This document shows positions 32,254 through 54,600 of a stretch of DNA of 64,000 nucleotides, one piece after another; position 1 is the first letter of the stretch; every line of letters begins with the position of its first letter. The notes beneath the pieces are model-generated. The model was not told where the DNA came from. It did no database searches and saw only the letters and a program-made list of their open reading frames with translations. The stretch is taken from assembly GCA_000092065.1 (NCBI GenBank), contig CP000582.1. The stretch is one strand, 5' to 3'. A program made the position numbers and the translations under genes. Source of the stretch: Ostreococcus lucimarinus. Lineage: Eukaryota.

Positions 32254-33914
32254 ATGTTAGTCGCTAAACTATCATCACAAGGATTTAATCTCGTTCGTTT
32301 TCAAAAACGGACGGCGCTCCGGGTCGTCGCTTCTGCGAAAAATACGGAGGGTGCCCGCGTGATGCGTACAGCGGCCGTGAGGGGAGCTTCCTCAGAACAT
32401 GGTTTCGACTACGATATTTTCGTCATCGGTAAGTCATACTTTCACATCGCGCGTTTCTAAATCGAATGAATATTGGTAGGTGGGGGATCTGGCGGAGTTC
32501 GCGCGTCGCGAATGGCTTCAAGCGCGGGTGCAAAAGTTGGACTCTGTGAAATGCCTTACGACCCAATAAGTTCAGATAGGACTGGTGGGCTCGGCGGCAC
32601 TTGTGTAATTCGAGGTTGCGTTCCGAAGAAACTATTCGTCTTTGGAAGCGGATTTTCTGCCGATTTCGAAGACGCAAGTGGATTCGGATGGGTGTTGAGT
32701 GAACCCAAGCTAGACTGGAAGAGGCTACTCGACGCAAAATTGAAGGAAACAGAGCGTTTAAATGGGATTTATGAAAGGTTACTTGATGGTTCAGGTGTCA
32801 CATCCTACGTAGGCGCTGGGAAATTATTGGACAATCACACAGTCGAGATAACTGGACAAGAGGTACGAGAAGTTTTTTTCTCTAAACGTGTGCGTGTTGA
32901 AAATGAATATAGGGCTCAAAGGAAAGCGTGACTGCGAGAGATATCCTCATCGCCACCGGGGGGAGAGCTTATGTGCCCGACATCCCTGGTGCAGAGCTTG
33001 GCATAACGTCGGATGAAGCCCTAAACTTGACCGAGCTACCGAAGAAAATGGTGATAGTGGGTAGTGGTTACATTGCAGTCGAGTTTGCTGGTATTTTCGC
33101 TGGACTTGGCGTGGAAGTCGACTTGGTTTATCGTCAAGCCCTTCCTCTTAGAGGCTTTGACGATGATATACGCAGCACAGTCTACTCTAACTTGAAAGAG
33201 AGAGGAATTAATCAAATTTCTAGCTGTCAACTCGTCAGTTTGGACAAACAGTCGGATGGTCGGTTGTTGTTAAGAACGTCTACTGAAGAATTAGAAACGG
33301 ATGTAGTTATCTTTGCGACAGGAAGGATACCAAATACAACTAGACCGAAACTTGGGCTAGAAAGTGTGGGGGTCGAACTTTCTGCAACGGGTGCCATAAA
33401 AGTGGATGAATACAGTAGAACTACGGTGAGCAATATATGGGCTGTTGGTGATGTTACCGATAGAGTCAATTTGACACCGGTTGCGCTTATGGAAGGGATG
33501 GCCTTTGTAGACACAGTCGTAAGGGGTAATCCGACTAAACCGGATTATGAGAATATACCATGTGCAGTATTCTCTCAACCGCCCGTTGCGACCGTCGGTT
33601 TATCAGAAAACGATGCGATTATGAGGGGGGTTCGATGCGATGTTTTCATGTCTTCTTTCACTCCGATGAAATATTCTCTCTCTGGGCGTAAAGAGAAAGC
33701 TCTGATGAAACTGGTAGTTGATTCAGTCAGTCAAAGGGTATTAGGTGTGCACATGGTAGGCCCCGATGCGGCAGAAATACTTCAAGGTTTCGCAACAGCT
33801 CTGAAATGTGGAGCTACCAAGCAGCACTTCGATCAGACTGTTGGTATCCATCCCTCTAGTGCTGAAGAGTTCGTGACAATGCGTTCGTTGACGCGGACAG
33901 TGGGGGGCGAATAG
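32254..33914 (+). CDS. GR: Glutathione reductase (plant/organellar type) with N-terminal presequence, 3 exons
   Basis: Spliced reading is FDYDIFVIG|[50 protein letters not shown], which contains the redox-active disulfide. [26 protein letters not shown] and the [12 protein letters not shown]-terminal motif are also present. Confidence 0.92.
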
Positions 33915-35428: not shown

Positions 35429-35518
35429 GGAAAAATTTATATATCGCCCCTTTAGAGAGTACCTACACACATGACGAGTCATGAACCGTGGATATATACG
35501 TATTTTACACCGTTTAGT
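35429..35518 (+). repeat. Inverted-repeat arm L (pairs with 36192..36279)
   Basis: ggaaaaatttatatatcgcccctttagagagtacctacacacatgacgagtcatgaaccgtggatatatacgtattttacaccgtttagt is the reverse complement of 36192..36279, apart from one 2-bp TA indel. Confidence 0.92.
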
Positions 35519-35519
35519 T

Positions 35520-36086
35520 CTAAAAGTTTGATTCTACAACATCTACGAGGTACTTACTAATGCTAATTTGCTCGCCTTTGCTTGCCTTGCGTTTGTGTTC
35601 ATCGACCATCTTCTCGTGCCAGCCCCTCTTCCTGCTCAACGCCGTATCACCCGCCGCGCCTCTCATAGGAATCGCAACCAGGTTCGACATACCGAGCACA
35701 CCATCGCCGTCCATTTTGCTATTCTTGGACATGTTTTGAGACATCTCTCTGTGTGTCTTCAAGTTGTGCATGAAACGTTGAAGTTTGTCGAGCGCGTCTG
35801 TGATGTGTGCGGCTTCATCAGGCTCGAACGTAAACTCCGGATCGAGTGCGAGTTGTATCATCTCGGTACACGATTGAACCCAGCGTGACTTTACACTCAC
35901 GTTGTCGAAAGCTGCTCCAAGGCTTCTCCGATGAGTTGGTAGAGAGGCTTCAACATTATCTGGAATCGCTGGAGTCACGTGTCTCCTGGAATCGCTGGAG
36001 TCACGTGTCTCCTGGAGCCCGGACGATACGTGAAGAGCATCACCGAACGGATCGTCGAAGGGATCATCGTCGCACTCGTCTTCCAT
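35520..36086 (-). CDS. Hypothetical 188-aa acidic protein enclosed by the inverted repeats (no recognisable family)
   Basis: The ORF fills most of the 673-bp interior between the IR arms. It contains a 26-bp tandem duplication (35961-36012) that switches reading frame yet leaves a long ORF. Confidence 0.35.
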   Translation of the reverse strand: MEDECDDDPFDDPFGDALHVSSGLQETRDSSDSRRHVTPAIPDNVEASLPTHRRSLGAAFDNVSVKSRWVQSCTEMIQLALDPEFTFEPDEAAHITDALDKLQRFMHNLKTHREMSQNMSKNSKMDGDGVLGMSNLVAIPMRGAAGDTALSRKRGWHEKMVDEHKRKASKGEQISISKYLVDVVESNF

Positions 36087-36191
36087 CCGACCATCGCCCG
36101 CACGCGCGACGACAACTGGCGCGACAGGCGTGGAAAAGACACGAGGCGAACGTGTTTTTCACCAAGGTAGGAATACTCTATTGTAGATGGC

Positions 36192-36279
36192 ACTAAACGG
36201 TGTAAAATACGTATATATCCACGGTTCATGACTCGTCATGTGTGTAGGTACTCTCTAAAGGGGCGATATAAATTTTTCC
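36192..36279 (-). repeat. Inverted-repeat arm R (pairs with 35429..35518)
   Basis: See arm L. The arm contains TATATA-like boxes and ATG codons, and lies between the divergent ORFs starting at 36086 (-) and 36446 (+). Confidence 0.92.
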
Positions 36280-36445
36280 CCCCGAACGCGTTTTTTGAAC
36301 GCGCCGGGGTTTAGCGAAACGCGATGGCGCAACCGTCGCGTTCGCGCGCCCGCCAGTGCGCGGTGCGGCCGCGGCCGCCCGCGGGTGCGCGTGAGTAGTT
36401 CGAGGTGATTCCGACGCGTCGCGTCCGCACGTCGTCGCGCGCCGA

Positions 36446-38239
36446 ATGCCTCGCACGTGCGTGTGCACGAACCCGAACTGCGACAAAGATGTCGAGCGAT
36501 TCGCGTTCCAACTCGGCAAGCACTGGAAAGACGACGTGCTCAAATCGATTCTATCGAGTCTCAGACCCGGAGCGGATGCTGATGACGTAGAAAAATACTT
36601 TTTGCGCGCGATGACGAAGCCCGATGGTGTTCGAGTGTCCTCGCAGCACTTCTTCTGGTACCATTTAGCATGGTCTCGAGGAGACCGCCCGAAGCTGGTC
36701 TTCAAAGATGGCGCGCACGTCCGGCCGACGTACATGCTCCATTCGAATCGGCCGACGTACGCGGGCGAACGAATCGTCGATCCGGCTCGTGTAGAATGTT
36801 TATCACCGCGCGAGACGCGTCTGCGCGTGAAGGCGCCGGCACGGGCGCCCCTTTCAGAGATTTCAAATTTGAATGAGGACGACGTGCATGCGACACAAGC
36901 TGGTGTCAGAGTTGGGATTAAACGGCGACGATCTGCTCCTGCGGCAATTTGCTCGCACAATCGCGCGCAAAACATGTCTTTGAACTCGTTTGAACGGGGA
37001 AGGCCGGGGGAAGAGACGTGCCGCGTGCAAGAAGGGACTATCCACAAGTTACGCTGTGATGAGTTGAAGTTGAGCGAGGCGCTGCGGGAAGAGCGTCAGC
37101 ACGCAGACGACGCGCGCGAGGACGTTCGTTTGCTCACGGAAGAACTTGAACGTATTCAAGAAGAAATGCACGACCAGGATCGAAAATCCTCGTTCGTAAC
37201 TATGCGATACTTGCGGGCGACGAGAGCTAGTGATAAGCAAATCAAAGCGCTTACTGGGTGGCCAACTTTGAAAACATTCGATGCTTTGTGGCGTTTCGTC
37301 AACGCGGGCGACCGCAATGCGACGCAAAACTTGTCGATTGTCAAACGAAAATGGAGGGGCGATTCGACGAGCGCGACGGGTTCGCATGGAACGGTCGTTC
37401 CGCGGAAAAAGAGCTTCAAATGGGAAGATGTATTTTTGGCGTGGTGGATGAGAGCGAAGATGGACTTGACCGCGGATCAACTTGCATACTTCGTCGGAAT
37501 ACACAAATCGACGCTTACACGTGCGCTACATCAAATGACATCATTTTTAACGGTTTTTATACGTGCTTACGGTGGCGACCCGATCGATCCCGAATGGATC
37601 CAGATGACAACAGGGGAGGATTGGAAAGAAGCATACGGGCAGAAACCTTATGAGATTATCGACGTGACTGAAGTGCCCATGGAGACTCCAGATGACCCAT
37701 ATATGCAGCGTTTGTTTTACAGTCATTATAAGAAGCGCTACGTGTGCAAATTTCTTGGCGCCTGTCACTCAAATTGTCTTGCCGCTTTCTGTTCAGTTGG
37801 GTTCCCTGGATCCATTTTTGACAATGAAATTTGCTTTGCTGGAAAGGATCATCCGATGCTTAATCATGCGGTACACCGAGCCAGCATCCGCCGGAGGACG
37901 TTCACAGACGAGAACGACGAAAATGTAGTCGTTCCCGAAACAATTGCAGCTGATCGTGGCTTTTGCGAAGGGTTGAATAGACAGTTTGAACGGGATGCGT
38001 TCAGGCTTGTGCACCCTGCGTTTTCAAGAGGCAAGAATGTGGCCTTCTCCAAGGAGGACATTCTCGACACCAGGGCGCAAGCATGTCGCCGAGTGCTAAT
38101 TGAAAATGCTTTCGGTCGCGTCAAGACGATTTGGAAGCGTATGCGCGGTCCAATAGCTATCTCCAAGCTGAAATCGGTGCATCAGGAGTGGCCAATAATA
38201 TTTTTCCTAGCGCTAGATTTACAAGCTTCGCTAAGGTAG
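36446..38239 (+). CDS. PIF/Harbinger-superfamily DDE transposase (DDE_Tnp_4 type), intronless
   Basis: HTH block: DLTADQLAYFVGIHKSTLTRALHQMTSFL. Catalytic blocks: EIIDVTEVPMETP (D), YSHYKKRYVCKF, GFPGSIFDNEI (D) and TIAADRGFCEG (D/E position). RRVLIENAFGRVKTIWKRM matches the R..VE..FG.LK..W..L signature. The N-terminus has a Cys/His pattern (CVCTNPNC ... SSQHF) reminiscent of a THAP-like finger; that last point is speculative. Confidence 0.8.
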   Translation: MPRTCVCTNPNCDKDVERFAFQLGKHWKDDVLKSILSSLRPGADADDVEKYFLRAMTKPDGVRVSSQHFFWYHLAWSRGDRPKLVFKDGAHVRPTYMLHSNRPTYAGERIVDPARVECLSPRETRLRVKAPARAPLSEISNLNEDDVHATQAGVRVGIKRRRSAPAAICSHNRAQNMSLNSFERGRPGEETCRVQEGTIHKLRCDELKLSEALREERQHADDAREDVRLLTEELERIQEEMHDQDRKSSFVTMRYLRATRASDKQIKALTGWPTLKTFDALWRFVNAGDRNATQNLSIVKRKWRGDSTSATGSHGTVVPRKKSFKWEDVFLAWWMRAKMDLTADQLAYFVGIHKSTLTRALHQMTSFLTVFIRAYGGDPIDPEWIQMTTGEDWKEAYGQKPYEIIDVTEVPMETPDDPYMQRLFYSHYKKRYVCKFLGACHSNCLAAFCSVGFPGSIFDNEICFAGKDHPMLNHAVHRASIRRRTFTDENDENVVVPETIAADRGFCEGLNRQFERDAFRLVHPAFSRGKNVAFSKEDILDTRAQACRRVLIENAFGRVKTIWKRMRGPIAISKLKSVHQEWPIIFFLALDLQASLR

Positions 38240-40336
38240 ATTCCGCGTCTCGCACGCGTCTGTAACCCTGTGTAAAGTACATTTGTGATTGTTCTCTTTT
38301 TCATATACGTCGAAATACTCCCTGAGAAGTGTTGATGGCTTGTTTCGCGACCACATCGCGCTTACATCAGGTGCAACTTCAGGGAGCTCCAAATCACCGT
38401 CACCGCGAGTGTCCACAGTGCATCGTCGCTTTGCGCGCCCAGCTTCGAATCGATTAAAGTCAATGTTGCTAAGAGGATTTTTGCGATTCATCGGATCCCC
38501 TTCGCCACTCGTGCCGAACCACTCACTTTCGAGCGACGTGCATGGATCAGCTGGTCGTTGCAACTTGGCAAAATACCAGAGCGCTGCGATGACATGGATG
38601 CACCCTCCGAAGTCTCCGCCCGCTCCCGCCTTGCACGCGCACGTCCCACGCTCGACACTGACGACATGGTCATGGACATGTTCATTCGTTTCTTCGTCGA
38701 TGCACCCATACTTGCATAACAAGCATACAGCGACGGCATAACGCTCTGCTTTGAGTGATGCCGGAATACCAACTCGGAACCACACGCGGAAGTGAGTTTG
38801 CATCCACGGATGCCCCACGTGCGCAAAACGAATCGGAAGGGGCGTCCGGGCGTGTATTCGTGCGTATCCTTGTCGATACGCTTTGGATCGAACCGGGTCG
38901 CCGTAAACGGACATCCCCGCGAGCCACGTCGTGATGATGTCCTCACCCATAAGCGGTGACGTCTCGCGGAAAAGCTCAACGTCAGTGCTCCACACTTCAG
39001 CATCCATTGGTGCGTCCAGATCGGGATCTAGCTCAGGGAATTGCGTCACCGGAAGATGAAAATGATGAACCAAATATGTATGAAGACTTTTCCCTTCTGG
39101 ATCCTGGACGTCGCCGTCGACGTCGATATCTAGCTCCTCGTACCGACGCTCAAGCTCCATCCTCTGTATGACCTCTGAGATGATGACATCTTTGTCCCGA
39201 ATATCCTGACATCCGCGGCGGCGATCGTTCCTACGCACGTTCAGCCAACGTATTAAATCCGATTTGGAGTTGTCCTCGACTCTCTTTTCCGGTAAAACGG
39301 CGCCTTTGATGAGATACTTGGGGATTCGTCTCGCCCGTGTTTCACCATGTCTAAAAAGGGCAGCCACTGCAACCAATTCAACGGGTTCGTGAGTATCCGC
39401 ATCGCGCAAACCTAAAGCGAATTCTTCGTTTTCTGAGTGATTTGCGTTGAATATGGTTGCGTCATTGAGCCAGCGTCTCTCTTTCGTCCGCATATCGTAC
39501 ACGATTGCTCGCTCAAAGCCCGCCAGGCTTTCCTCAAGTTTGAGAATTTGCGTGTCCTCATCACTCGCGTCGACGACGTCCTTCTTGACGAGGTATTTCA
39601 CAAAAGAGCGGATACTGAGAGTCTCTGCACTCTGTATGCACGCTACAATGGCTTTCAGAGCCGTTTGGGGTCCAAGTCCGGGAACTTTCCCCTCCCTGTA
39701 ATCACACCCGCTCGCCGCCGCCCACAAGCGCATGGCGGCGTCGCCGTGCATGCACATGAGCTCCGCAACTGTGTTCACCTCGTTCGTGTCTACCGGCATC
39801 CTCAGGTTGTTTCTGTTAAAAACGTTGCACTTTAACGTCGAAACGCTCCAAGACACCTTGTGGACGACCTTGGCGCACCCGAGCACCACTGCATCTGTGT
39901 CATCCGTCAACACGAAATCAACGAGACCACTCGACTCCATGTACTTCAACTGGTGATCTGATTCGTTTGGCGCCACGACGTACACGAATCCACGCTTCCG
40001 CACTTCATTCAGTATCCGAGGCAAATAACATCGTTCGAATTTTTCACCTATCGTACCTGCTCGCTTCGCGTGCGTCTCCTTCTTGTGTGCAGTCCTCGCA
40101 CCGTCGAAAACAAGGACTGGGAAGACACCTGCATTCACGAGCTTCGTAGCGCGCGAAATGACCGTTTCTACAGACGAATCCAGTTTATCCTGAACAGAAC
40201 CAGTTTTTCGCATCGCCCACCCCTGGTGTATCCAGATGTTTGCGTCTACCCCCGCTTTCGCGTTGGCGAACTCGCCGCCGATGGACGTGCGGACGACCGC
40301 ATCGTCGAACGCTTTCCACCCTGCGTCGACGCCCAT
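38231..40336 (-). CDS. EXO1/XPG/FEN1-family structure-specific 5' nuclease fused to a C-terminal SWIM zinc finger, intronless
   Basis: The probable start MGVDAGWKAF is at 40336. XPG-N: GVDANIWIHQ and PVLVFDGARTAHKKETHAKR. XPG-I: VVAPNESDHQLKYMESSGLVDFVLTDDTDAVVLGC. H3TH: GCDYREGKVPGLGPQTALKAI. SWIM: CACKAGAGGDFGGCIHVIAALWY. All acidic catalytic positions appear to be retained. Confidence 0.8.
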   Translation of the reverse strand: MGVDAGWKAFDDAVVRTSIGGEFANAKAGVDANIWIHQGWAMRKTGSVQDKLDSSVETVISRATKLVNAGVFPVLVFDGARTAHKKETHAKRAGTIGEKFERCYLPRILNEVRKRGFVYVVAPNESDHQLKYMESSGLVDFVLTDDTDAVVLGCAKVVHKVSWSVSTLKCNVFNRNNLRMPVDTNEVNTVAELMCMHGDAAMRLWAAASGCDYREGKVPGLGPQTALKAIVACIQSAETLSIRSFVKYLVKKDVVDASDEDTQILKLEESLAGFERAIVYDMRTKERRWLNDATIFNANHSENEEFALGLRDADTHEPVELVAVAALFRHGETRARRIPKYLIKGAVLPEKRVEDNSKSDLIRWLNVRRNDRRRGCQDIRDKDVIISEVIQRMELERRYEELDIDVDGDVQDPEGKSLHTYLVHHFHLPVTQFPELDPDLDAPMDAEVWSTDVELFRETSPLMGEDIITTWLAGMSVYGDPVRSKAYRQGYARIHARTPLPIRFAHVGHPWMQTHFRVWFRVGIPASLKAERYAVAVCLLCKYGCIDEETNEHVHDHVVSVERGTCACKAGAGGDFGGCIHVIAALWYFAKLQRPADPCTSLESEWFGTSGEGDPMNRKNPLSNIDFNRFEAGRAKRRCTVDTRGDGDLELPEVAPDVSAMWSRNKPSTLLREYFDVYEKENNHKCTLHRVTDACETRNLP

Positions 40337-40672
40337 ACGCACCAGAATTTGCAAACACGGCTACAACTCGATCAGAAATACATTTTGTCACCTGTTCATG
40401 TGCCTCCGCGATGCCCGACGCGCGTGCGCGCCACGACAGCAGCGTGAAAGTGACGGGGATGCGCGACGGGCCGAGCGAGTTCAAAAAAAGGACGAAAGGG
40501 CACCGGATTCGAGGTTTTCGTCGACAGTGGGTCATGACGAGTCACAAACGTTCGACTTAAATATGTAAAATGATAGGAAAACCTTAATGCAATGGGTCAT
40601 AATAGCTGAATATATATGGTTTCTCGTCGTAATGGACAAAAGTTGCTTTCATAAAAATAAGGATGTAGTTGT

Positions 40673-40789
40673 TACTGAGAGTGGGGTTCGAACCCACGCA
40701 GTCAATGACTACCAGAAATCTCACCAGTTTTTTCGGTGAAGCTTATTCGCACTTGAGTCTGGCCCCTTAGACCACTCGGGCATCCCAGC
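40673..40789 (-). tRNA. trnL-CAA: tRNA-Leu (anticodon CAA) with a ~34-nt intron after position 37
   Basis: Hand fold on the minus strand. Acceptor GCTGGGA/TCTCAGT (with G-U pairs). D arm CCC-GAGTGGTCTAA-GGG. Anticodon stem CCAGA/TCTGG with loop CT-CAA-G[intron]T. Long variable arm TAGTCATTGACTGC. T arm GTGGG-TTCGAAC-CCCAC. Discriminator A. A TTTTT run lies downstream (Pol III terminator). Confidence 0.85.
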
Positions 40790-42646: not shown

Positions 42647-45600
42647 GTGACATATGACATCGTATTACAACGTTTTACCCCCACTTCGCAAGGACCGACC
42701 ACCCCATATCCATGTGCTATAAAAGCTAACTCAAAATGGAAGCTCGTACGTCTGAAACGCTTGGCGCTCGAGCGTTTCCGATGTCCGATGTTAACGCGCC
42801 ACAAACCGGAGAGCGTTCAGAATGGTACGCCCCGAAATGAATCACGAATGAGCAATCTAGACACACGCGCTATGTCGAACCCTTACTTTCAGGTCGGGCG
42901 ATGGGACTGCACGGACGAGCTCGAGGGGTGTCAATTCTCCGCGCCACATACGTCGGTGTCAGTTCCTAATTTCGAAGAGATTCAGACCCTTCACTACACC
43001 TGCGTGTATGAAGTGGCGATCACGTGTACACAGCGGCATGATATGCATAACGATGAGTTCGCGCATGTACTTAGTTCTGTCATCGAGCTCGCAAATCGCG
43101 TTGACCTGACACGACTTAGGCAACATCACTCCATAGATAACTTTGCCACACACGTTCTCACTTTTCGGTTCATTCTGGACCTGTTGAGGCAAACTTATCA
43201 GGAATACATCAAAGGAAGCATAGAAAATAATTCGTTTGAGCATGTCGAATTTACTTTCAACAATTGCATGGATGGTACGCACGGAATGGCAACATGCTTT
43301 AAACCGAATAAAAAGCATAGTCACCTTTGTTACATTTTGGATATTTCGCAGGCAGAAAGAAGTTGCAATGGTCGTACTGATGACACAAAATGCGTGCACG
43401 ACAAAATTACTATGAACGATCGCGTTCTTTCCGCGGCTAAGATCCCAGACAACGCAGTGAATAAACAATTCAGTGCTAGTATACTCAATGATGTGTATGG
43501 TTTCGATTCAAGTCTGTTCCATATTTCTCAGTCGGAAACCCTCTGCATGGACCCACAACAACGACTATTACTTCTTGCAGCAGCAGACTTATACCTGAGT
43601 AACACACGTGTTTGTCAACACGACGACTCCTTCTGCGTGCACGTCGGTGTATCGTGGAATGACTTTGAGGAAATTCGCAGAAAGTATAGTGCAGACTTTT
43701 TCTCCACTTATGATTCGACGGGAACATCAATAAGTGTCGCATCGGGTAGAATTGCGTATTATTTTGATTTCAAAGGGTGTGCTGTGACGATTGATACGGC
43801 TTGTTCATCATCTTTGGTTGCGTTGCATCAATCCATGTACGCAGCTGGCTCGCTCCGTGAATCAAGTGCACTTGTATGTGGCATCAACTTGATTTTGACA
43901 ACCACGATGACACATCGATTTCAGCTTGCTGGAATGATGTCTTCAGAGCATCGATGTATGACATTTGATGCACGCGCGGATGGCTACGTCCGGAGTGAGG
44001 CATGCAACATCGTACTCTTACACTTCAATGGCTTCACAAAAACTCATAGGAATGTACTGCGGCATGACGTTCATATGTCATGCGTCGTCAATCAAGATGG
44101 AACATCAACTGGACTTACGGCACCTAATGGAACAGCTCAGCGGAACCTGATGAATGAGTTACTATCGGACGTTTATAACCCTTCAAAACACGTTGGTGCT
44201 AAAATACATGCCCACGGCACAGGTACGCCTCTTGGGGATCCGATAGAGGTGTTTGCTATCAATTCTGCCCTCTCGTTTTCGTCACTGTGCAGGCTGTATG
44301 TGTCAGAAAAGTCGATGCGAGGGCACACAGAACCTGCTTCAGGTCTATGCAGCACCATACTTGCTTTCGTATCAGGTGCACAGTGCAAGCTACATGGTCA
44401 ACCACATTTACAGCAGTTAAACAATCATATACTAACATCGGTTGATGAAAGTATTTTTCAGCGTTCACTGCATTCCAGTTTTCCCTTAACTTCTATGGCG
44501 AGTGTCACCACAGTAAGCTCCTTCGCGTTCCAAGGGACGAACGCAATGGCTTCACTGACATATATCGACAAATGCAGTATTAGAGTGATTCGCAACACGT
44601 CAGGTCTGAGATCTTTGGTCAAGTTGGAGACTGAATCCCCTGTAAGACTCCCGTACACATTTTCTTGCCTTAGCATCGTCAATGGGAAAATGATACAGCT
44701 AACTTCAATGATTCACGACAAAACATTGAAGCGACTTTTGGATCATCGTGTAGCTGATATGCATCTTATGCCAGCCACAGGCCATCTTGAACTTGAAAGA
44801 GAGCTCACGAAGTGCGCTCTCGTAAGGAATGAACCATATCTTCTGACAAAGATCGCATTTATGCTGCCTCTCAAGCTTGATGAAAGCAATCAACTTATCA
44901 CAGAGATGAACACACATGGTCGCTTACGCGTTGGATGTGGCTCTGGCATATCCAATTACTGGTGTAGTACTGCACGACTTCAAATACCAGTAGGACGTGC
45001 CTGGTGCACGGACCGTACTTTTTATCTGACTAGTAAACTCGTTTCTCGGCGTTTCAAAGGTGCGACCGCAACAATAGCAGGGACGACGCCAATTCTCGAT
45101 TCACAAAATGTCGTGAATCCGTGTATCCAGGATGCGAGTCTACAATGCTCTGCATACGTCTTGAACACGTCAGCTTTCGCATCTGATACAACCTACATGG
45201 ACTGCGTATCGTTACTTAAGCTACCAACAACAATTCAAGACGTCATAGTTGTTAATCAGACAGGAAAAATACTTGTTAGATCGACGCATGTTGACATGTT
45301 GCAGAAGACGCAGCATGTGACTGAAAGTAATAACTCTGTCACAAGTAACTCTTCGAGTAACAATAAAACGCAGACATGGATACATCGTTTACTGTGTAAA
45401 GTATCAACCGTACGGATGAAAGCTGGCTTACGCACTCGCACATGCTTGGAACTCGCGAGATTGTTGTACCACGCGAGACAACAAAGAGTGCTGATATCAA
45501 ATATGCAAAACTTGCGTGAAGTAGGCAGTTTACATGCTCCAGAACTGATGCCCATCATGCGCGAAATGGGTCGTAAGTCAATGCAAGATATTAATTCGGC

Positions 45601-48600
45601 TAGTGCCTCTCTTTGCGCGGTTGCGCTGCTGCAGGCTTGCGGCGCTCGTGCGCGCGTTTCCGGCGCCCACGTGCGTGCAAACGACATCGTCCACGAGGAC
45701 GCTTCGGCCGCGCCCGCAGTCTGTGGATCGTGCGTGCGCGCCACCGTGCAATCTTCCGCGCAGGAACGCAGCGAGCCATTGGTGCTGAGTGTCGCGAGCG
45801 CCCCGCACACCGCGCCAGCCCGAGCGTTGCGATCGATCGCCGCCGGGGCGTCGATCGCCGGGGCGCTGTGCGTTGAGCGGCTGCTTCCGGCGTTCGGTCG
45901 CCGGACGCCCGCCGCGTCGCGCGACGGCGCGGCGACGACCACGGCGTCGCCGGCACCGAAAGTCTCGAGCGTGTTCGTGACTGGCGGTCTGGGCGCGTTG
46001 GGTCAGACTTCGGCGGCGTGGTACGCGCATCGAGGCGTTCGCCACGCCTACTTGACTGGTCGCCGCGGGCGCGGAGAGTCCCTTCTGCTGCGATGGTCGT
46101 CGCGCGGCGGTACCGACGTGAGCGCATTGCACGTGCTTCGCGTCGACGCGTGTGCGACCGACGAGGCGTCGTACGGCGGTGCGCGCGCGCACGCGCGCGT
46201 GCGCGCACACGGCGTGCTGCACGCGGGCGGCGTGCTACGCGACTCTTTGACTGCTCGCCAATCCGCGTCGGCCCATCGATACGTGTGGTCGTCCAAAGTA
46301 GTGTCCGCGCACGCATTGCTCCGCCAGTGCGTCGGCGTCGAGCGCGGCGCGCGTCACATCGCGCTGTTCTCGTCGGTGGCGGCGCTGCTGGGGAGTCCAG
46401 GGCAATGCAACTACAGCGCGGCCAACGCCGCGCTGGACGCGCGAGCCGCACACGAGTGGTGCCGCGGGTACGCGGTGCAATCCGTGCAGTGGGGCGCGTG
46501 GGACGGCGCGGGAATGGCGCTGACAAACGCGTCTGTACTCAGGAACGCGCGCACGACAGGCATCGGCGTGCTCGATCCGCAAGCCGGGCTCGGGGCCGTA
46601 CACGTCGCGCTTCAGGGCGCATCAGTGACGGGTCGCTGGCGGGCAATCCAAGGCGTCCTGGCCGTCGTCCCGTTCCAGTGGTCCGTGCTCGCGCGCGCGC
46701 AGCGCTCGCGCGCGCTGATTGCGGAGTACCGCGCGGAGTCGGCGCGGTCGAGCGCTCCAGTCGCCGTCCATCCGGGCGCCGAGGAAGACGCGGCGCGCGA
46801 TGTGTCAGATGAGAGCGTGCGGCAGATCGTGGCCTCCGCCGTGACGCGCGCGCTCGGCAGAGACGTGTCGGTGGACGCGTCGCTCATGGAAGAGGGCCTA
46901 GACTCGCTCGCGGCGGTCGAGCTCGGAGGGGCGTTACAAAAGGAAACGGGCGTGAACATGCCGGCCACGCTGGCATTTGACTACCCGACGATCACCGCGA
47001 TATCTGGGTACCTGAAGGGTGCGATGCTGGCGCGATCGCGTGCGCGCCAATCGAGCGGCGCGGCGTCCAGCGCCGCTCGCACGCGCGCCGCGAGCGGCGC
47101 GGTCGCGCATTCGCGCGACTCGATGCCAGGTATTGCATCCAACGCGCGCGAAATCTTGGGTCTTGCGCCCGTTGTTATGGCCATCAGACGGAGCGTGCGA
47201 CGACTCGACGCGGATGATCGAGAGCCAAAGCCTGCTCGACATGGCGGCTCGGCGTTGTTTTCATCGTTCGTGAGGTGCGTCATGGCAGAGCGAGCCTCTG
47301 AAGATCGCTTCGACACGCCATCGTTGGGCAGGCAGCCGAGCGCGACAGCGCGCGTGGTCTCCTTGACGAAAGCCAGAGATTTCACTACACAAGCTCTCGA
47401 CAGCATGCCGAAATGCAACGAGATTGAGCTGAGCGTCGTCAGCGCTGTGTCGAGTAAGGCATCAGGCGCGCACGATGCCGTGCGTGTGAACAACATGCGA
47501 CATGCGTGCGGCGAAGTGTGTGATCCACAAAGCTCAAAATCGCACGAGTTCGTCGCTCGGCGTCTTGTGCAGTTTGGGTACTTCATCGAGCGCAGCTTGT
47601 TTGACGGGGAGCAGTTCTCCGTAACGGCGCACGAGGCGCGGTTGATGGACCCGCAGCAGCGCGTGCTCCTGGAGAACGCGCTCGCCGCGACGAGTGCGAC
47701 GCCGCACAGCGCGCCGAAGCCAGCCACAGCCGTGTCCGTCGGCGCTTGGACGTCTCAGTACGCAGACATGTGCCGCGTGTACGAGCCAACGCCGGGGCCG
47801 TACTCTGGCGTTGCTTCCGCCTTGAGCGTGCTGTGCGGTCGCGTATCGTACACGTTTGGTATGCGTGGCCCGTCCGTGTGTGTCGACACCGCGTGCTCCT
47901 CCTCGCTCGTGGCCGCGCATGTTGCGAGCTCTCACTTGCGCGATGGATCGTGCGAGGACGCCCTCGTCGCCGGCGTGAGCGTGAACGTCGGCATCGGCAC
48001 CTTCCTCGTGGCCACCGCCGCGAGCATGCTATCGTTCGATGGTCGGTGCAAAACCTTGGATGCCAGCGCCGACGGTTACGCCAAGGGCGAGTGCTGCGTG
48101 GTCCTGCGCGTGTCGGTGGACGGGGCGAGCGCTGGAGCGCCCAAAGCGCCCGATCTTCCAAACGCCGAGTCTCCCTCTCTCGCTCTTCTCGAACAGACCG
48201 GTGTGAACCAGGATGGACGGTCGAGCTCGCTCACCGCACCAAACGGGCCGTCGCAGCAGGCACTCGTGGCCGATGCGCTTCTCCGCTCGGGGCTGCACGG
48301 CGACGCGCTCGGCAGGCTGGAGATGCACGGCACGGGTACTTCGCTGGGAGATCCGATAGAGGTCGGCGCCGCGCTTGAGGTTCTCGCGCCGCCGACGCGC
48401 GCGGACCGGGCGCCGTCCAGGGGCCCCGCGCTCACGCTTGAGGGCGTGAAGCCACGCGCTGGCCACTGCGAACCAGGGGCTGGCGCGGTTGGGTTGCTGT
48501 TTGCGATGGCAAACTTGACGGAGCGAGCCGTCGCGTCCCTCGTCCACCTGCGCCAGCTCAACCCTCACGTCGAGGCCGCGACGCGCCGAAACGCACCGTC

Positions 48601-51600
48601 GCCGCATGCGCGCGCGCCGGTGCTCGCGCGACAAGGCATGCCGCGACCGGATGACGGCGCGTCTGAGGCTGGAGCAGCGGACGCTGCTCGAGCGCGCGTG
48701 CGGCGATCCGGCGTGAGCGGCTTCGCGTTCCAGGGCACAAACGCGCACGCAATCATGGCCCGGGGACCCGGACAGGCGACTGCGCCCGGGTACACGGGAA
48801 GCACGCACACGGCGGCGCGTGCGTGGGAGCGTCAGCGCCACTGGTGCGCGCCAGAACGGCACTGCCTCATCGAGTCCGTGCGCGCTCTGCATCCTCGCGA
48901 GGGAGACTCGAGCGCGTTGGCGCGGTCGTGCGTGCGCCTGTGTCGGTCCGCGTCGCTCGCTGGCATGCTTGATCACGCCGTCGGGCTCCGGACGCTGCTA
49001 CCAGGCACAGCGCACGTCGAGATATGTCGAGCCATGGCGGGCGCGCTGGCAGACCAGCCGCTCGCCGACATCTCGCTGTCGCACGTATCTTTTGCAGCGC
49101 CCCTCGAGCTTCGAGCGCCGACGACCGACGTGCTGTGCGACGTCACGCCGCAAGGCGTGGCCCGCGTGGGCGTGCGCGTGTCGTCGTCCTCTGCCGCCGC
49201 GCCGTTCCTCGCGGGCGCGCTCAGCCGCAGAAGCGCCTCAAGAATTACTGCGTCTCCGGCGCACCTCTCGCGAGGACCGGCGATGCCCGCGCTGGACGTG
49301 CAGCCTTGTGTTCACGGCGCGAGCTGGCTGCGCTCGTCGCAGCGACGAGGCCCGGGCGCGGAGCACCGCGTGTACGGCGACATACGCGCGCGTCAGATGT
49401 CCACGCTGTCGGCTGCGGCGTATCACTCGCCGCCCGCAGTGCTCGATGCCGCGCTGCACGCGCTCAGCGCGTGCGCGCCGCCGCCGGGTAGCGATGCGAC
49501 AGAAGAGAGCCCGCACGTCCCGGCCACGATCGGCGGCGTCCGCACGCGAGGCGGGCACTCGGACATATACCGCGCCCGGTTCGCGCTCGCGACGGCTCCG
49601 CCTGAGCGCGGGGAGCGGAACGCGTCCACGCGCAGATCTCGTCACCACCTGTGGGACTGGTCGAGTCTTTCGGCGGCGCATCGAGGGTGCGTGGTGCACG
49701 CGCTGGAGTCTCGACGACTCGGTGGCGCCGCGGTCGTGCGCTCGCGAGCACAACAGCGCTCGAGGGCACCGCCGCCGCGTCGCGCGGCCGCGCCGCGTGT
49801 GCTTTATGGAGTCGGGCAACAGCGCGCGTGCGGCGCGGCGGATGGCCAGGGCGCGCGTCGACGCTCAACCCTCAACTCGCAGTGCTTTGTGGACGACGCG
49901 TCGCACCGCCGCGAGCTGATGGAGACCCACGCGTCACCATCGATCGCGCAAGGCAGCACGCGAAGCAGCACGCGCGCCTCTCTTTGCGCGGTTGCGCTGC
50001 TGCAGGCTTGCGGCGCTCGTGCGCGCGTTTCCGGCGCCCACGTGCGTGCAAACGACATCGTCCACGAGGACGCTTCGGCCGCGCCCGCAGTCTGTGGATC
50101 GTGCGTGCGCGCCACCGTGCAGTCTTCCGCGCAGGAACGCAGCGAGCCATTGGTGCTGAGTGTCGCGAGCGCCCCGCACACCGCGCCAGCCCGAGCGTTG
50201 CGATCGATCGCCGCCGGGGCGTCGATCGCCGGGGCGCTGTGCGTTGAGCGTCTGCTTCCGACGTTCGGTCGCCGGACGCCCGCCGCGTCGCGCGACGGCG
50301 CGGCGACGACCACGGCGTCGCCGGCACCGAAAGTCTCGAGCGTGTTCGTGACTGGCGGTCTGGGCGCGTTGGGTCAGACTTCGGCGGCGTGGTACGCGCA
50401 TCGAGGCGTTCGCCACGCCTACTTGACTGGTCGCCGCGGGCGCGGAGAGTCCCTTCTGCTGCGATGGTCGTCGCGCGGCGGTACCGACGTGAGCGCATTG
50501 CACGTGCTTCGCGTCGACGCGTGTGCGACCGACGAGGCGTCGTACGGCGGTGCGCGCGCGCACGCGCGCGTGCGCGCACACGGCGTGCTGCACGCGGGCG
50601 GCGTGCTACGCGACTCTTTGACTGCTCGCCAATCCGCGTCGGCCCATCGATACGTGTGGTCGTCCAAAGTAGTGTCCGCGCACGCATTGCTCCGCCAGTG
50701 CGTCGGCGTCGAGCGCGGCGCGCGTCACATCGCGCTGTTCTCGTCGGTGGCGGCGCTGCTGGGGAGTCCAGGGCAATGCAACTACAGCGCGGCCAACGCC
50801 GCGCTGGACGCGCGAGCCGCACACGAGTGGTGCCGCGGGTACGCGGTGCAATCCGTGCAGTGGGGCGCGTGGGACGGCGCGGGAATGGCGCTGACAAACG
50901 CGTCTGTACTCAGGAACGCGCGCACGACAGGCATCGGCGTGCTCGATCCGCAAGCCGGGCTCGGGGCCGTACACGTCGCGCTTCAGGGCGCATCAGTGAC
51001 GGGTCGCTGGCGGGCAATCCAAGGCGTCCTGGCCGTCGTCCCGTTCCAGTGGTCCGTGCTCGCGCGCGCGCAGCGCTCGCGCGCGCTGATTGCGGAGTAC
51101 CGCGCGGAGTCGGCGCGGTCGAGCGCTCCAGTCGCCGTCCATCCGGGCGCCGAGGAAGACGCGGCGCGCGATGTGTCAGATGAGAGCGTGCGGCAGATCG
51201 TGGCCTCCGCCGTGACGCGCGCGCTCGGCAGAGACGTGTCGGTGGACGCGTCGCTCATGGAAGAGGGCCTAGACTCGCTCGCGGCGGTCGAGCTCGGAGG
51301 GGCGTTACAAAAGGAAACGGGCGTGAACATGCCGGCCACGCTGGCATTTGACTACCCGACGATCACCGCGATATCTGGGTACCTGAAGGGTGCGATGCTG
51401 GCGCGATCGCGTGCGCGCCAATCGAGCGGCGCGGCGTCCAGCGCCGCTCGCACGCGCGCCGCGAGCGGCGCGGTCGCGCATTCGCGACGTACAACCATTA
51501 CTCAGCTCCCTCGTCTACGTCTATCATACGTTCCGCATGAAGTCAGCCGACGAACGACTCTTGGCATTAGCGGTCAATATTCTCACGAGCTTAGACACTT

Positions 51601-54600
51601 TAGCTCTGCGGGACCTTCGACCAGTAACTTTGAGGGAGTCCTCTTTGTTCGCATTCATAACTCCACCAAGCCCTTACCCGTGCATCCATATTTCATTGGC
51701 AACTTTTTGCGTTGTGACGAACTCGAGTTCGGCTTGTTTGGCGCACCGCACAGCGAATGGACTACTCTGGACGCGCGGCAGATTCTCTTGATTGAGAGTG
51801 TACACACTATCCAGCTGAACAACAGTTCAGACGTTTCATTGCGCACTCTAGAGACGACGGCTGTTCTTGTTGGAGCACAAGCGGTAGATTCAACTGACGA
51901 GCATAGCGTTGAGATACAGTACAACGCCTACTCTGGCGTTGCTTCCGCCTTGAGCGTGCTGTGCGGTCGCGTATCGTACACGTTTGGTATGCGTGGCCCG
52001 TCCGTGTGTGTCGACACCGCGTGCTCCTCCTCGCTCGTGGCCGCGCATGTTGCGAGCTCTCACTTGCGCGATGGATCGTGCGAGGACGCCCTCGTCGCCG
52101 GCGTGAGCGTGAACGTCGGCATCGGCACCTTCCTCGTGGCCACCGCCGCGAGCATGCTATCGTTCGATGGTCGGTGCAAAACCTTGGATGCCAGCGCCGA
52201 CGGTTACGCCAAGGGCGAGTGCTGCGTGGTCCTGCGCGTGTCGGTGGACGGGGCGAGCGCTGGAGCGCCCAAAGCGCCCGATCTTCCAAACGCCGAGTCT
52301 CCCTCTCTCGCTCTTCTCGAACAGACCGGTGTGAACCAGGATGGACGGTCGAGCTCGCTCACCGCACCAAACGGGCCGTCGCAGCAGGCACTCGTGGCCG
52401 ATGCGCTTCTCCGCTCGGGGCTGCACGGCGACGCGCTCGGCAGGCTGGAGATGCACGGCACGGGTACTTCGCTGGGAGATCCGATAGAGGTCGGCGCCGC
52501 GCTTGAGGTTCTCGCGCCGCCGACGCGCGCGGACCGGGCGCCGTCCAGGGGCCCCGCGCTCACGCTTGAGGGCGTGAAGCCACGCGCTGGCCACTGCGAA
52601 CCAGGGGCTGGCGCGGTTGGGTTGCTGTTTGCGATGGCAAACTTGACGGAGCGAGCCGTCGCGTCCCTCGTCCACCTGCGCCAGCTCAACCCTCACGTCG
52701 AGGCCGCGACGCGCCGAAACGCACCGTCGCCGCATGCGCGCGCGCCGGTGCTCGCGCGACAAGGCATGCCGCGACCGGATGACGGCGCGTCTGAGGCTGG
52801 AGCAGCGGACGCTGCTCGAGCGCGCGTGCGGCGATCCGGCGTGAGCGGCTTCGCGTTCCAGGGCACAAACGCGCACGCAATCATGGCCCGGGGACCCGGA
52901 CAGGCGACTGCGCCCGGGTACACGGGAAGCACGCACACGGCGGCGCGTGCGTGGGAGCGTCAGCGCCACTGGTGCGCGCCAGAACGGCACTGCCTCATCG
53001 AGTCCGTGCGCGCTCTTCATCCTCGCGAGGGAGACTCGAGCGCGTTGGCGCGGTCGTGCGTGCGCCTGTGTCGGTCCGCGTCGCTCGCTGGCATGCTTGA
53101 TCACGCCATCGGGCTCCGGACGCTACTACCAGGCACAGCGCACGTCGAGATATGTCGAGCCATGGCGGGCGCGCTGGCAGACCAGCCGCTCGCCGACATC
53201 TCGCTGTCGCACGTATCTTTTGCAGCGCCCCTCGAGCTTCGAGCGCCGACGACCGACGTGCTGTGCGACGTCACGCCGCAAGGCGTGGCCCGCGTGGGCG
53301 TGCGCGTGTCGTCGTCCTCTGCCGCCGCGCCGTTCCTCGCGGGCGCGCTCAGCCGCAGAAGCGCCTCAAGAATTACTGCGTCTCCGGCGCACCTCTCGCG
53401 AGGACCGGCGATGCCCGCGCTGGACGTGCAGCCTTGTGTTCACGGCGCCATCAGACGGAGCGTGCGACGACTCGACGCGGATGATCGAGAGCCAAAGCCT
53501 GCTCGACATGGCGGCTCGGCGTTGTTTTCATCGTTCGTGAGGTGCGTCATGGCAGAGCGAGCCTCTGAAGATCGCTTCGACACGCCATCGTTGGGCAGGC
53601 AGCCGAGCGCGACAGCGCGCGTGGTCTCCTTGACGAAAGCCAGAGATTTCACTACACAAGCTCTCGACAGCATGCCGAAATGCAACGAGATTGAGCTGAG
53701 CGTCGTCAGCGCTGTGTCGAGTAAGGCATCAGGCGCGCACGATGCTGTGCGTGTGAACAACATGCGACATGCGTGCGGCGAAGTGTGTGATCCACAAAGC
53801 TCAAAATCGCACGAGTTCGTCGCTCGGCATCTTGTGCAGTTTGGGTACTTCATCGAGCGCAGCTTGTTTGACGGGGAGCAGTTCTCCGTAACGGCGCACG
53901 AGGCGCGGTTGATGGACCCGCAGCAGCGCGTGCTCCTGGAGAACGCGCTCGCCGCGACGAGCGCGACGCCGCACAGCGCGCCGAAGCCAGCCACAGCCGT
54001 GTCCGTCGGCGCTTGGACGTCTCAGTACGCAGACATGTGCCGCGTGTACGAGCCAACGCCGGGGCCGTACTCTGGCGTTGCTTCCGCCTTGAGCGTGCTG
54101 TGCGGTCGCGTATCGTACACGTTTGGTATGCGTGGCCCGTCCGTGTGTGTCGACACCGCGTGCTCCTCCTCGCTCGTGGCCGCGCATGTTGCGAGCTCTC
54201 ACTTGCGCGATGGATCGTGCGAGGACGCCCTCGTCGCCGGCGTGAGCGTGAACGTCGGCATCGGCACCTTCCTCGTGGCCACCGCCGCGAGCATGCTATC
54301 GTTCGATGGTCGGTGCAAAACCTTGGATGCCAGCGCCGACGGTTACGCCAAGGGCGAGTGCTGCGTGGTCCTGCGCGTGTCGGTGGACGGGGCGAGCGCT
54401 GGAGCGCCCAAAGCGCCCGATCTTCCAAACGCCGAGTCTCCCTCTCTCGCTCTTCTCGAACAGACCGGTGTGAACCAGGATGGACGGTCGAGCTCGCTCA
54501 CCGCACCAAACGGGCCGTCGCAGCAGGCACTCGTGGCCGATGCGCTTCTCCGCTCGGGGCTGCACGGCGACGCGCTCGGCAGGCTGGAGATGCACGGCAC

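Follow-up and report, generated by a model that had tools for sequence, protein, structure and literature searches.

Mu1 and dMuDR of maize are deletion derivatives of MuDR, an autonomous element encoding a MULE-type DDE transposase. They carry long terminal inverted repeats (~200 bp in Mu), are flanked by 9-bp target-site duplications, depend on transposase supplied in trans, insert near the 5′ ends of genes and have a short duplicated sequence at the deletion junction. In MuDR itself, promoters are located in the terminal repeats. Among other plant MULEs, the KI-MULEs of Arabidopsis carry an Ulp1 protease. In Mamiellales, a recent preprint reports that MULEs flank giant PKS genes in low-GC outlier regions (bioRxiv 10.1101/2025.04.21.649811).

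We analysed a 64,000-nt stretch of the Ostreococcus lucimarinus genome (contig CP000582.1; the window), in which an 851-bp unit with inverted-repeat arms very probably represents a non-autonomous, internally deleted Mutator-like (MULE) cut-and-paste DNA transposon of Ostreococcus. Like Mu1 and dMuDR, the unit belongs with long terminal inverted repeats and 9-bp duplications, is an internally deleted form of an autonomous element encoding a MULE-type DDE transposase, lies near the 5′ end of a gene, has a short duplicated sequence at its deletion junction and, judged from sequence, would depend on transposase in trans. It differs from maize Mu in its host, a prasinophyte picoalga, in its shorter repeats (~90 bp), in a deletion that leaves an in-frame mini-ORF joining N and C terminus, and in that the window copy is without a target-site duplication. 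The association of Ulp1/C48 and MULE domains is common to KI-MULEs and the autonomous relatives of the unit; unlike in KI-MULEs, both domains lie in one ~1,360-aa ORF in the Ostreococcus family, and the window copy has lost both. As with MITEs, the family includes arm-to-arm derivatives of 110–290 bp with 9-bp duplications (loci L069 and L071); unlike MITEs, the window unit is 851 bp long and has kept a transposase-derived ORF, making it a deletion derivative and not a miniature. The MULEs of the Mamiellales preprint come from the same organism group and probably the same compartment as the unit, which also has a PKS gene nearby, and are described there at class level; in the available parts of the preprint we found no description of the unit's family, its deletion series or its ORF. 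The unit and its immediate context comprise the following features, in window coordinates.

35429–35518, no strand assigned: left arm (90 nt), the terminal inverted repeat 3′ of the ORF
35470–35483, plus strand: core motif CATGACGAGTCATG in the left arm, a near-palindrome and conserved repeat block
35520–36086, minus strand: ORF188, a truncated MULE transposase made of N- and C-terminal pieces of an Ulp1–MULE protein
35960–36011, no strand assigned: a 26-bp unit present twice in tandem, inside ORF188 at the internal-deletion junction
36087–36191, minus strand: 5′ leader from the right arm to the ATG, common to longer family members
36192–36279, no strand assigned: right arm (88 nt), the terminal inverted repeat 5′ of the ORF
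36280–40598, no strand assigned: rest of a second mobile block with DDE_Tnp_4 and XPG genes (context, not part of the unit)
36446–38239, plus strand: DDE_Tnp_4 gene (Pfam)
38231–40354, minus strand: XPG_N/XPG_I nuclease gene (Pfam)

The two arms are reverse complements of each other save for one TA unit in a TATATA run (repeat search and blastn; E = 3e-39 within the window), as the earlier note on this DNA had described. The right arm of the window copy has one TA unit fewer than all other copies examined, including L001. The outer tip of the left arm, GGAAAAATTTATAT, is the terminus of the element, and matches at other loci end exactly there. Both arms contain the core CATGACGAGTCATG, whose central GA is asymmetric within the near-palindrome. 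Across subfamilies, the conserved blocks of the arm are the terminal ~14 nt, TTYAGAGAGT and TGACGAGTCATGAAC, the last being the form in which the core is retained even in arms of only 80–85% identity. From its sequence the core is presumed to be a candidate transposase-binding or promoter element, and, by likeness to maize MuDR only, the right arm could plausibly act as a bidirectional promoter. Between the arms, the 673-bp interior holds a single 188-aa minus-strand ORF, as previously noted; 1 nt separates its stop codon from the left arm, and 105 nt lie between its ATG and the right arm.

Complete copies of the unit occur at L002, L003, L013–L022, L030, L038 and other loci, with similarity ending exactly at positions corresponding to 35429 and 36279. 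The complete unit was recovered from many independent assemblies by look-ups of exact proteins and by an arm-pattern scan, which found 59 metagenome stretches. We counted 44 distinct arm/flank junctions; in 30 of them, identity to the window arm is 93% or more. The arms occur at dozens of sites, so that the refuting case named in the earlier note, arms confined to this locus, clearly does not apply; its reading of them as the terminal inverted repeats of a unit that is discrete and was active recently is borne out. The near-identity of the two arms, which had been taken as a possible sign of a local inverted duplication or gene conversion, is instead a property of the family, in which arms are 97–100% identical between loci. 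No arm match was found in IMG/VR, where we looked for a viral origin.

Symmetry is all that would favour a fold-back artefact of assembly, which the earlier note had also raised, or an inverted duplication specific to this locus. We consider the probability of either negligible. Different assemblers have recovered the unit in more than 20 independent assemblies, and the arrangement seen in the window recurs in L004, L005 and L001, a 360-kb JGI contig 99.97% identical to it. The arms are shorter than the k-mer sizes given in contig names (k119–k141), so a fold-back join would not be required. GenBank numbering of the reference is also compatible with the arrangement: cyclin, ORF188, XPG and STN7 are consecutive (ABO94717–94720), which, if numbering follows strand, would place them on one strand in the reference.

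Perfect 9-bp target-site duplications flank five insertions, which include full units, variants and miniatures; three further cases are weaker.

AAATATGAA: L013, L014 and L019 (three assemblies), 9 bp, perfect
AACGCGTTT: L016 and L022, 9 bp, perfect
CTCTTGACG: L026, 9 bp, perfect
CTCGAGTAC: L071, 9 bp, perfect
GCATCCTTT: L095, 9 bp, perfect
CCCCGAACG: L089 and L090, weaker case, read across two contigs
TTGTCAGAC / TTGTCCGAC: L069, weaker case, 8 of 9 positions
TCGGATCG: L038, weaker case, 8 bp

The earlier statement that no target-site duplication is visible holds for the window copy, whose flanks (left …TCCCAGCAC, right CCCCGAACG…) form no direct repeat, and fails for the family, which makes duplications of 9 bp. 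Arrival of the window copy by transposition would follow from the evidence of the family, its own duplication being absent. In many metagenome contigs the flanks are paired in shuffled combinations, which might reflect true recombination among copies or, alternatively, contigs chimerically assembled across the 851-bp repeat; these contigs were not used as a basis for conclusions.

The family can be followed to a full-length form. Locus L096 (81–4578) carries an element of 4,498 bp with arms at both ends that are 83–85% identical to the window arm; this copy has no target-site duplication at its ends. Its single ORF, P0189, scores 68.8 bits against Peptidase_C48 and 45.2 bits against MULE PF10551, for which the gathering threshold is 27.6. 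Full-length proteins of the family are 1,356–1,407 aa long (roughly 1,360 aa; protein-cluster look-ups) and consist of an acidic N terminus, a cysteine-rich putative DNA-binding region, an Ulp1/C48 protease, a MULE DDE transposase, a CxC motif and a conserved C-terminal tail. The C48/Ulp1 and MULE domains are combined in the autonomous relatives P0189, P0153 and O. tauri XP_022840218.1, the last being an example of the O. tauri reference proteins in the same clusters that are annotated ‘Peptidase C48’. At L077, an open frame of 660 aa extends beyond the edge of the locus and ends C-terminally in the region homologous to ORF188; the frame matches MULE PF10551 at 43.5 bits (threshold 27.6), and an arm of the unit's type (89% identical) follows directly after the transposase stop codon.

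The marks of a MULE are accordingly present: long terminal inverted repeats, every family member examined having the same arms; relatives (L096 and L077) that share these termini and encode a MULE-type DDE transposase; target-site duplications of 9 bp, within the 8–11 bp typical of MULEs, for the family and not for the window copy; and an interior that is the deletion product of an autonomous element, devoid of its catalytic domain. The 3-bp TWA duplication and related short terminal repeats of PIF/Harbinger elements were not found, the duplications here being 9 bp, and the interior of the window unit is transposase-derived, not host-gene-derived as in a Pack-MULE. A sister variant at L026 (1366–2499) carries an unrelated 233-aa ORF.

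ORF188 is identical to XP_001416425.1, a ‘predicted protein’ of O. lucimarinus CCE9901. It is not the orphan it had been taken for: it is a truncated MULE transposase that matches both ends of the full-length protein. Residues 1–31 are identical to residues 1–31 of P0154 at 29 of 31 positions and 97% identical to residues 50–80 of P0189, and residues 39–180 are 83% identical to P0189 residues 1265–1406; the C-terminal part also matches residues 513–659 of the L077 frame (78%). ORF188 has lost all of the DNA-binding, Ulp1, DDE and CxC regions, and its own Pfam matches stay below threshold, no MULE domain being detected.

At the DNA level, the unit corresponds to a full-length element minus ~3.55 kb of coding sequence and minus a second, small stretch between the stop codon and the 3′ arm. 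Unit positions 1–287 align with the 5′ ends of L056, L095 and L096. The same arms enclose a graded series of deletions, with ORFs of 457 aa at L095 (still including the cysteine-rich N-terminal region), 339 aa at L056, 223 aa at L012 and 188 or 181 aa in the unit, and, at the extreme, arm-to-arm miniature forms of 110–290 bp at L015, L023, L065, L066, L069 and L071. Diverged ORF188 homologues without paired arms (L008–L012) were at first read as evidence that the repeats are not conserved; they are fragments.

The window copy very probably arose through an internal deletion of ~3.55 kb, spanning codons ~81–1264, together with the small second deletion. What escaped were the two repeats with the 5′ leader, as well as 31 codons from the N terminus and ~150 from the C terminus, and the 26-bp tandem duplication at the junction joined the two coding pieces in frame as ORF188. 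As read from the sequence, one 26-bp unit leads the frame to a stop, and two keep the N- and C-terminal pieces in frame; two units are present in 21 of the 22 copies, with L030 having one. Because ORF188 is without the catalytic and DNA-binding parts, the unit would be movable only with transposase in trans. Such a transposase, from a full-length family member, would bind the repeat blocks and excise the unit, which would insert elsewhere through a 9-bp staggered cut. Indirectly, near-identical copies (97–100%) at different sites suggest that the family transposase may mobilise the unit in this way; within the 64-kb window itself there is no autonomous copy.

ORF188 could instead be a functional truncated transposase with the 5′ terminal repeat driving its expression, perhaps regulating its family as the KP repressor of the P element does, and several observations speak for this. 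The 26-bp duplication holds both parts in frame in nearly all copies, the C-terminal 60 residues are almost invariant across the family, and an AlphaFold model predicts residues 62–121 as a confident helical hairpin. Polymorphisms among unit-type copies show a mild synonymous excess (pN/pS 0.47, one-sided p = 0.03), which comes partly from poorly aligned stretches. Against this, the 21 two-unit copies probably descend from one progenitor and hence are not independent evidence, relatives with stop codons are known (L040 and L044), and ORF188 has neither the DNA-binding nor the catalytic region and is mostly predicted to be disordered. The hairpin is the only confident part of the model (mean pLDDT 58.5, pTM 0.30), which was judged too poor for a fold search; a PDB sequence search with the related protein P0151 as query gave no match. 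Measured against the deeply diverged P0151 lineage, dN/dS is ~0.3–0.35, a value that fits purifying selection acting on the transposase tail during the longer divergence. Pairwise among the non-autonomous, unit-type copies it is 0.4–1.2, which means relaxed constraint and also speaks against a functional ORF. A functional ORF188 thus appears unlikely. A more specific proposal, that the ORF is maintained, is promoted from the terminal repeat and acts in trans on the Ulp1–MULE family through its N-terminal tail and C-terminal helical/basic region, as a dominant inhibitor or multimerisation partner, we regard as doubtful; if it were so, the frame-restoring 26-bp duplication would have been selected and not accidental. 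We favour reading ORF188 as a largely relaxed remnant, with a residual regulatory role possible.

The right arm adjoins a palindromic stretch, CCCCGAACGCGTTTTTTGAACGCGCCGGGG, 166 bp upstream of the DDE_Tnp_4 gene. The same palindrome was also the target of the 72%-diverged P0151 MULE, with duplication CCCCGAACG, and forms a hot spot for insertion. The neighbouring transposase, DDE_Tnp_4 (PIF/Harbinger/IS5-like), is from a superfamily other than MULE and is not the expected mover of the unit. In allele L006, position 35428 is joined to position 40599 through 62 unrelated bp, the block 35429–40598 being absent.

The whole 5,170-bp block (35429–40598) might therefore be viewed as one composite element that moved here as such, bounded on one side by the unit's outer arm and on the other by a cryptic site near 40.5 kb resembling an arm. 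In favour of this, alleles either have the entire block or, like L006, have the 62 unrelated bp instead; one of its boundaries falls exactly at an arm tip; and CATGACGAGTCA, which resembles the core, is found 55 bp from the other boundary. This last similarity had been described as a degenerate third copy of the arm. It amounts to 12 nt of core identity with a weak extension, and is compatible with chance given the size of the window. Local alignment gave a score of 16 against 8.5 ± 1.6 in shuffles (4/2000, for one pre-chosen 120-nt segment), which is within chance after multiple testing, and 1 extra core-like match was observed in the 64 kb where 0.49 is expected by chance. Its central orientation is, moreover, opposite to that expected for an inverted end. 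The block has no flanking 9-bp duplication, and 62 bp of target are gone.

Other loci also weigh against a composite. On L082, a 531-kb contig, the same DDE-side junction occurs with the unit reversed, at a locus between a tRNA paralogue and a PsbP-like gene; this locus is also represented by L002, L016, L022 and L085, and the unit there has the duplication AACGCGTTT. The right end of the block meets a flank different from that of the window in L002, L016, L022 and L082. At this PsbP-side locus the block has the same right boundary (…GGGTC) and reaches ~0.95 kb further left than the unit (L082:8003–14153); since the right boundary is reused, it belongs to the DDE/XPG block itself. Since the block continues past the unit, which has its own duplication AACGCGTTT, the unit represents an insertion within this second mobile block. 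A composite element of 5,170 bp is thus very unlikely. The related idea that the unit forms the left end of a 5.17-kb Harbinger-like element was dropped for the same reason, as flank b of L002, L018 and L082 shows the block extending past the unit. Comparison of the ends of the DDE/XPG block with the arms and with each other revealed no significant similarity, and shuffle tests for terminal repeats of the block, and for the 62-bp filler as a relic of its end, both suspected on visual inspection, were non-significant (310/5000, 1191/5000 and 3289/5000). A candidate likeness between the cyclin-side flank and the sequence upstream of DDE_Tnp_4 came down to a match of only 17 of 19 nt and was discarded.

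The reversed unit in L002 first suggested a further possibility, that of an invertible segment: in the manner of the Hin/Gin or yeast 2-micron FLP systems, the arms would recombine and so reverse the ORF with respect to the DDE_Tnp_4 gene. At the identical DDE-side junction, one orientation is found in the window, L001, L004 and L005, and the opposite in L002, L016, L022, L023, L082 and L085; the diverged P0151 element also occurs in both orientations at this site (L089 versus L090), and the core is a near-palindrome with an asymmetric centre. Orientation is nevertheless constant for each locus, all cyclin-side contigs having one state and all PsbP-side contigs the other, and the two states differ in the outer flank too, making them different loci or products of rearrangement. 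Neither the unit nor its immediate surroundings showed a gene for a serine or tyrosine recombinase, and we found no single locus with both orientations of the unit. Because the arms are identical, a flip would leave the sequence upstream of the ORF unchanged. Finally, the unit stands alone at many other sites, with target-site duplications. A switch is, for these reasons, highly improbable, and was abandoned in favour of a dispersed transposon.

Reading the unit as a MULE inserted into the DDE/XPG block leaves the missing duplication of the window copy to be accounted for. In the window, the left part of the block is missing and the cyclin-side flank stands directly at the arm tip; the copy has no duplication because this outer flank is not the original one. 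Most likely, the original flank was lost through a rearrangement with its breakpoint exactly at the repeat tip. As the simplest route, we propose that the DDE/XPG block, already bearing the unit, lay beside the tRNA; that a second copy of the unit inserted ~1 kb away; and that a crossover within the 90-bp arms removed the intervening DNA, which would leave the interior reversed relative to the copies that keep the duplication.

The general concepts of MULE biology are unchanged by these results; their value is mainly one of annotation, for a well-defined MULE family. XP_001416425.1, a ‘predicted protein’ of O. lucimarinus, and its metagenome homologues can now be annotated as transposon remnants. 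In the smallest free-living eukaryotes, a young MULE family now has defined termini, a known full-length form and a target duplication established as 9 bp, which will be of use in repeat annotation and in reading structural variation in hypervariable low-GC regions and around giant PKS genes.

The window is ~45% GC and gene-dense, with a richer stretch (50–57% GC) at 35.1–40.6 kb, and a giant PKS gene (a 4,658-aa ORF at 42647–56623) lies 6 kb from the unit. It is probably a low-GC outlier region of these algae, consistent with the Mamiellales preprint (bioRxiv 10.1101/2025.04.21.649811). Five neighbouring proteins, together with ORF188, match O. lucimarinus CCE9901 proteins exactly. A tRNA with an intron, for which ARAGORN gave no hit, was found in the window by Rfam.

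The unit, an 851-bp non-autonomous MULE transposon, lies beside a second mobile block, the DDE/XPG block, whose presence or absence varies between alleles. Another allele, L006, lacks both.

Window 36280-40598: DDE/XPG block (complete copy at L082:8003-14153)
L006:142-202: 62-bp sequence, allele of window 35428/40599
Window 40673-40789, minus strand: tRNA gene, 117 nt (Rfam RF00005, 42.4 bits)

In the 'empty' allele, 5,170 bp of the window correspond to 62 bp (GACCCGGTGTTCAGGTAAAAAAAGTCCCTTTTGTACGGAATCGGCACCGGAACCTATAATTA), and the two alleles differ by sequence replacement rather than by a clean insertion. Within the block, two separate genes encode a DDE_Tnp_4 transposase (PIF/Harbinger/IS5-like) and an XPG_N/XPG_I nuclease with a CxC...CxH motif at its C-terminus. 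Academ transposons are known to carry XPG nucleases (PMC7165386); we found no description of such a nuclease paired with a DDE_Tnp_4 transposase. The ends of the block are sharp and carry no significant terminal repeats, and in L082 it has TATTAT on either side. At two loci the same position 3′ of a tRNA gene adjoins the block, with the block in opposite orientations. In L018 and L082, the neighbour at the block's other end is a paralogue of the window's tRNA gene with an 86% identical flank. The tRNA gene in the window, detected by Rfam although missed by ARAGORN, presumably contains an intron because of its length.

The copy of the block in L002, another contig, carries an extra insertion in its left part that is not present in L015 or L018.

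L002:319-2757: insertion, 2.4 kb

This insertion codes for a pogo/Tc5-like transposase (DDE_1 and HTH_Tnp_Tc5), so that DNA transposons from three superfamilies are nested at the locus.

Upstream of the DDE_Tnp_4 gene, a palindromic stretch is a MULE insertion hot spot.

Window 36280-36309: palindromic stretch, CCCCGAACGCGTTTTTTGAACGCGCCGGGG

Insertion occurred at AACGCGTTT in L016 and L022, and in L089/L090 the P0151 element, a diverged MULE relative of the unit, is inserted at CCCCGAACG; the junctions in the window and L002 look like a hybrid of these two insertions. The arm tip is partly duplicated (33 bp) at the hot spot in L016, L022 and L082. Across contigs L013-L022 and L088-L093, the two flanks of the unit are combined in many shuffled ways (a-a′, a-e, b-a′, b-f, c-e, c-h and others), with matching duplications in only some of the pairs. 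Either ectopic recombination between copies of the unit is frequent, or the repeat has given rise to chimeras during metagenome assembly.

One variant element has the same arms as the unit and a 9-bp duplication.

L026:1366-2499: variant element, 1,134 bp (further copies in L053, L067 and L075)

Of the transposase it keeps no more than the final ~40 codons, and its cargo is an unrelated 233-aa ORF, which belongs to a cluster of 78 sequences and has no Pfam domain. The element may represent gene capture.

Two further genes lie in the window.

Window 32473-33914: glutathione-reductase-like gene (label from Pfam families in the L001 gene calls)
Window 42647-56623: giant PKS ORF, 4,658 aa

The first consists of two overlapping ORFs (152 and 328 aa) in different frames, an arrangement that points to either a frameshift or a short intron. 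The giant PKS ORF has a GC content of ~45% at its ends and 64-72% in its core, which is made of near-identical repeated modules; L001:1-1247 aligns to two places in this ORF at 99.8-99.9%.
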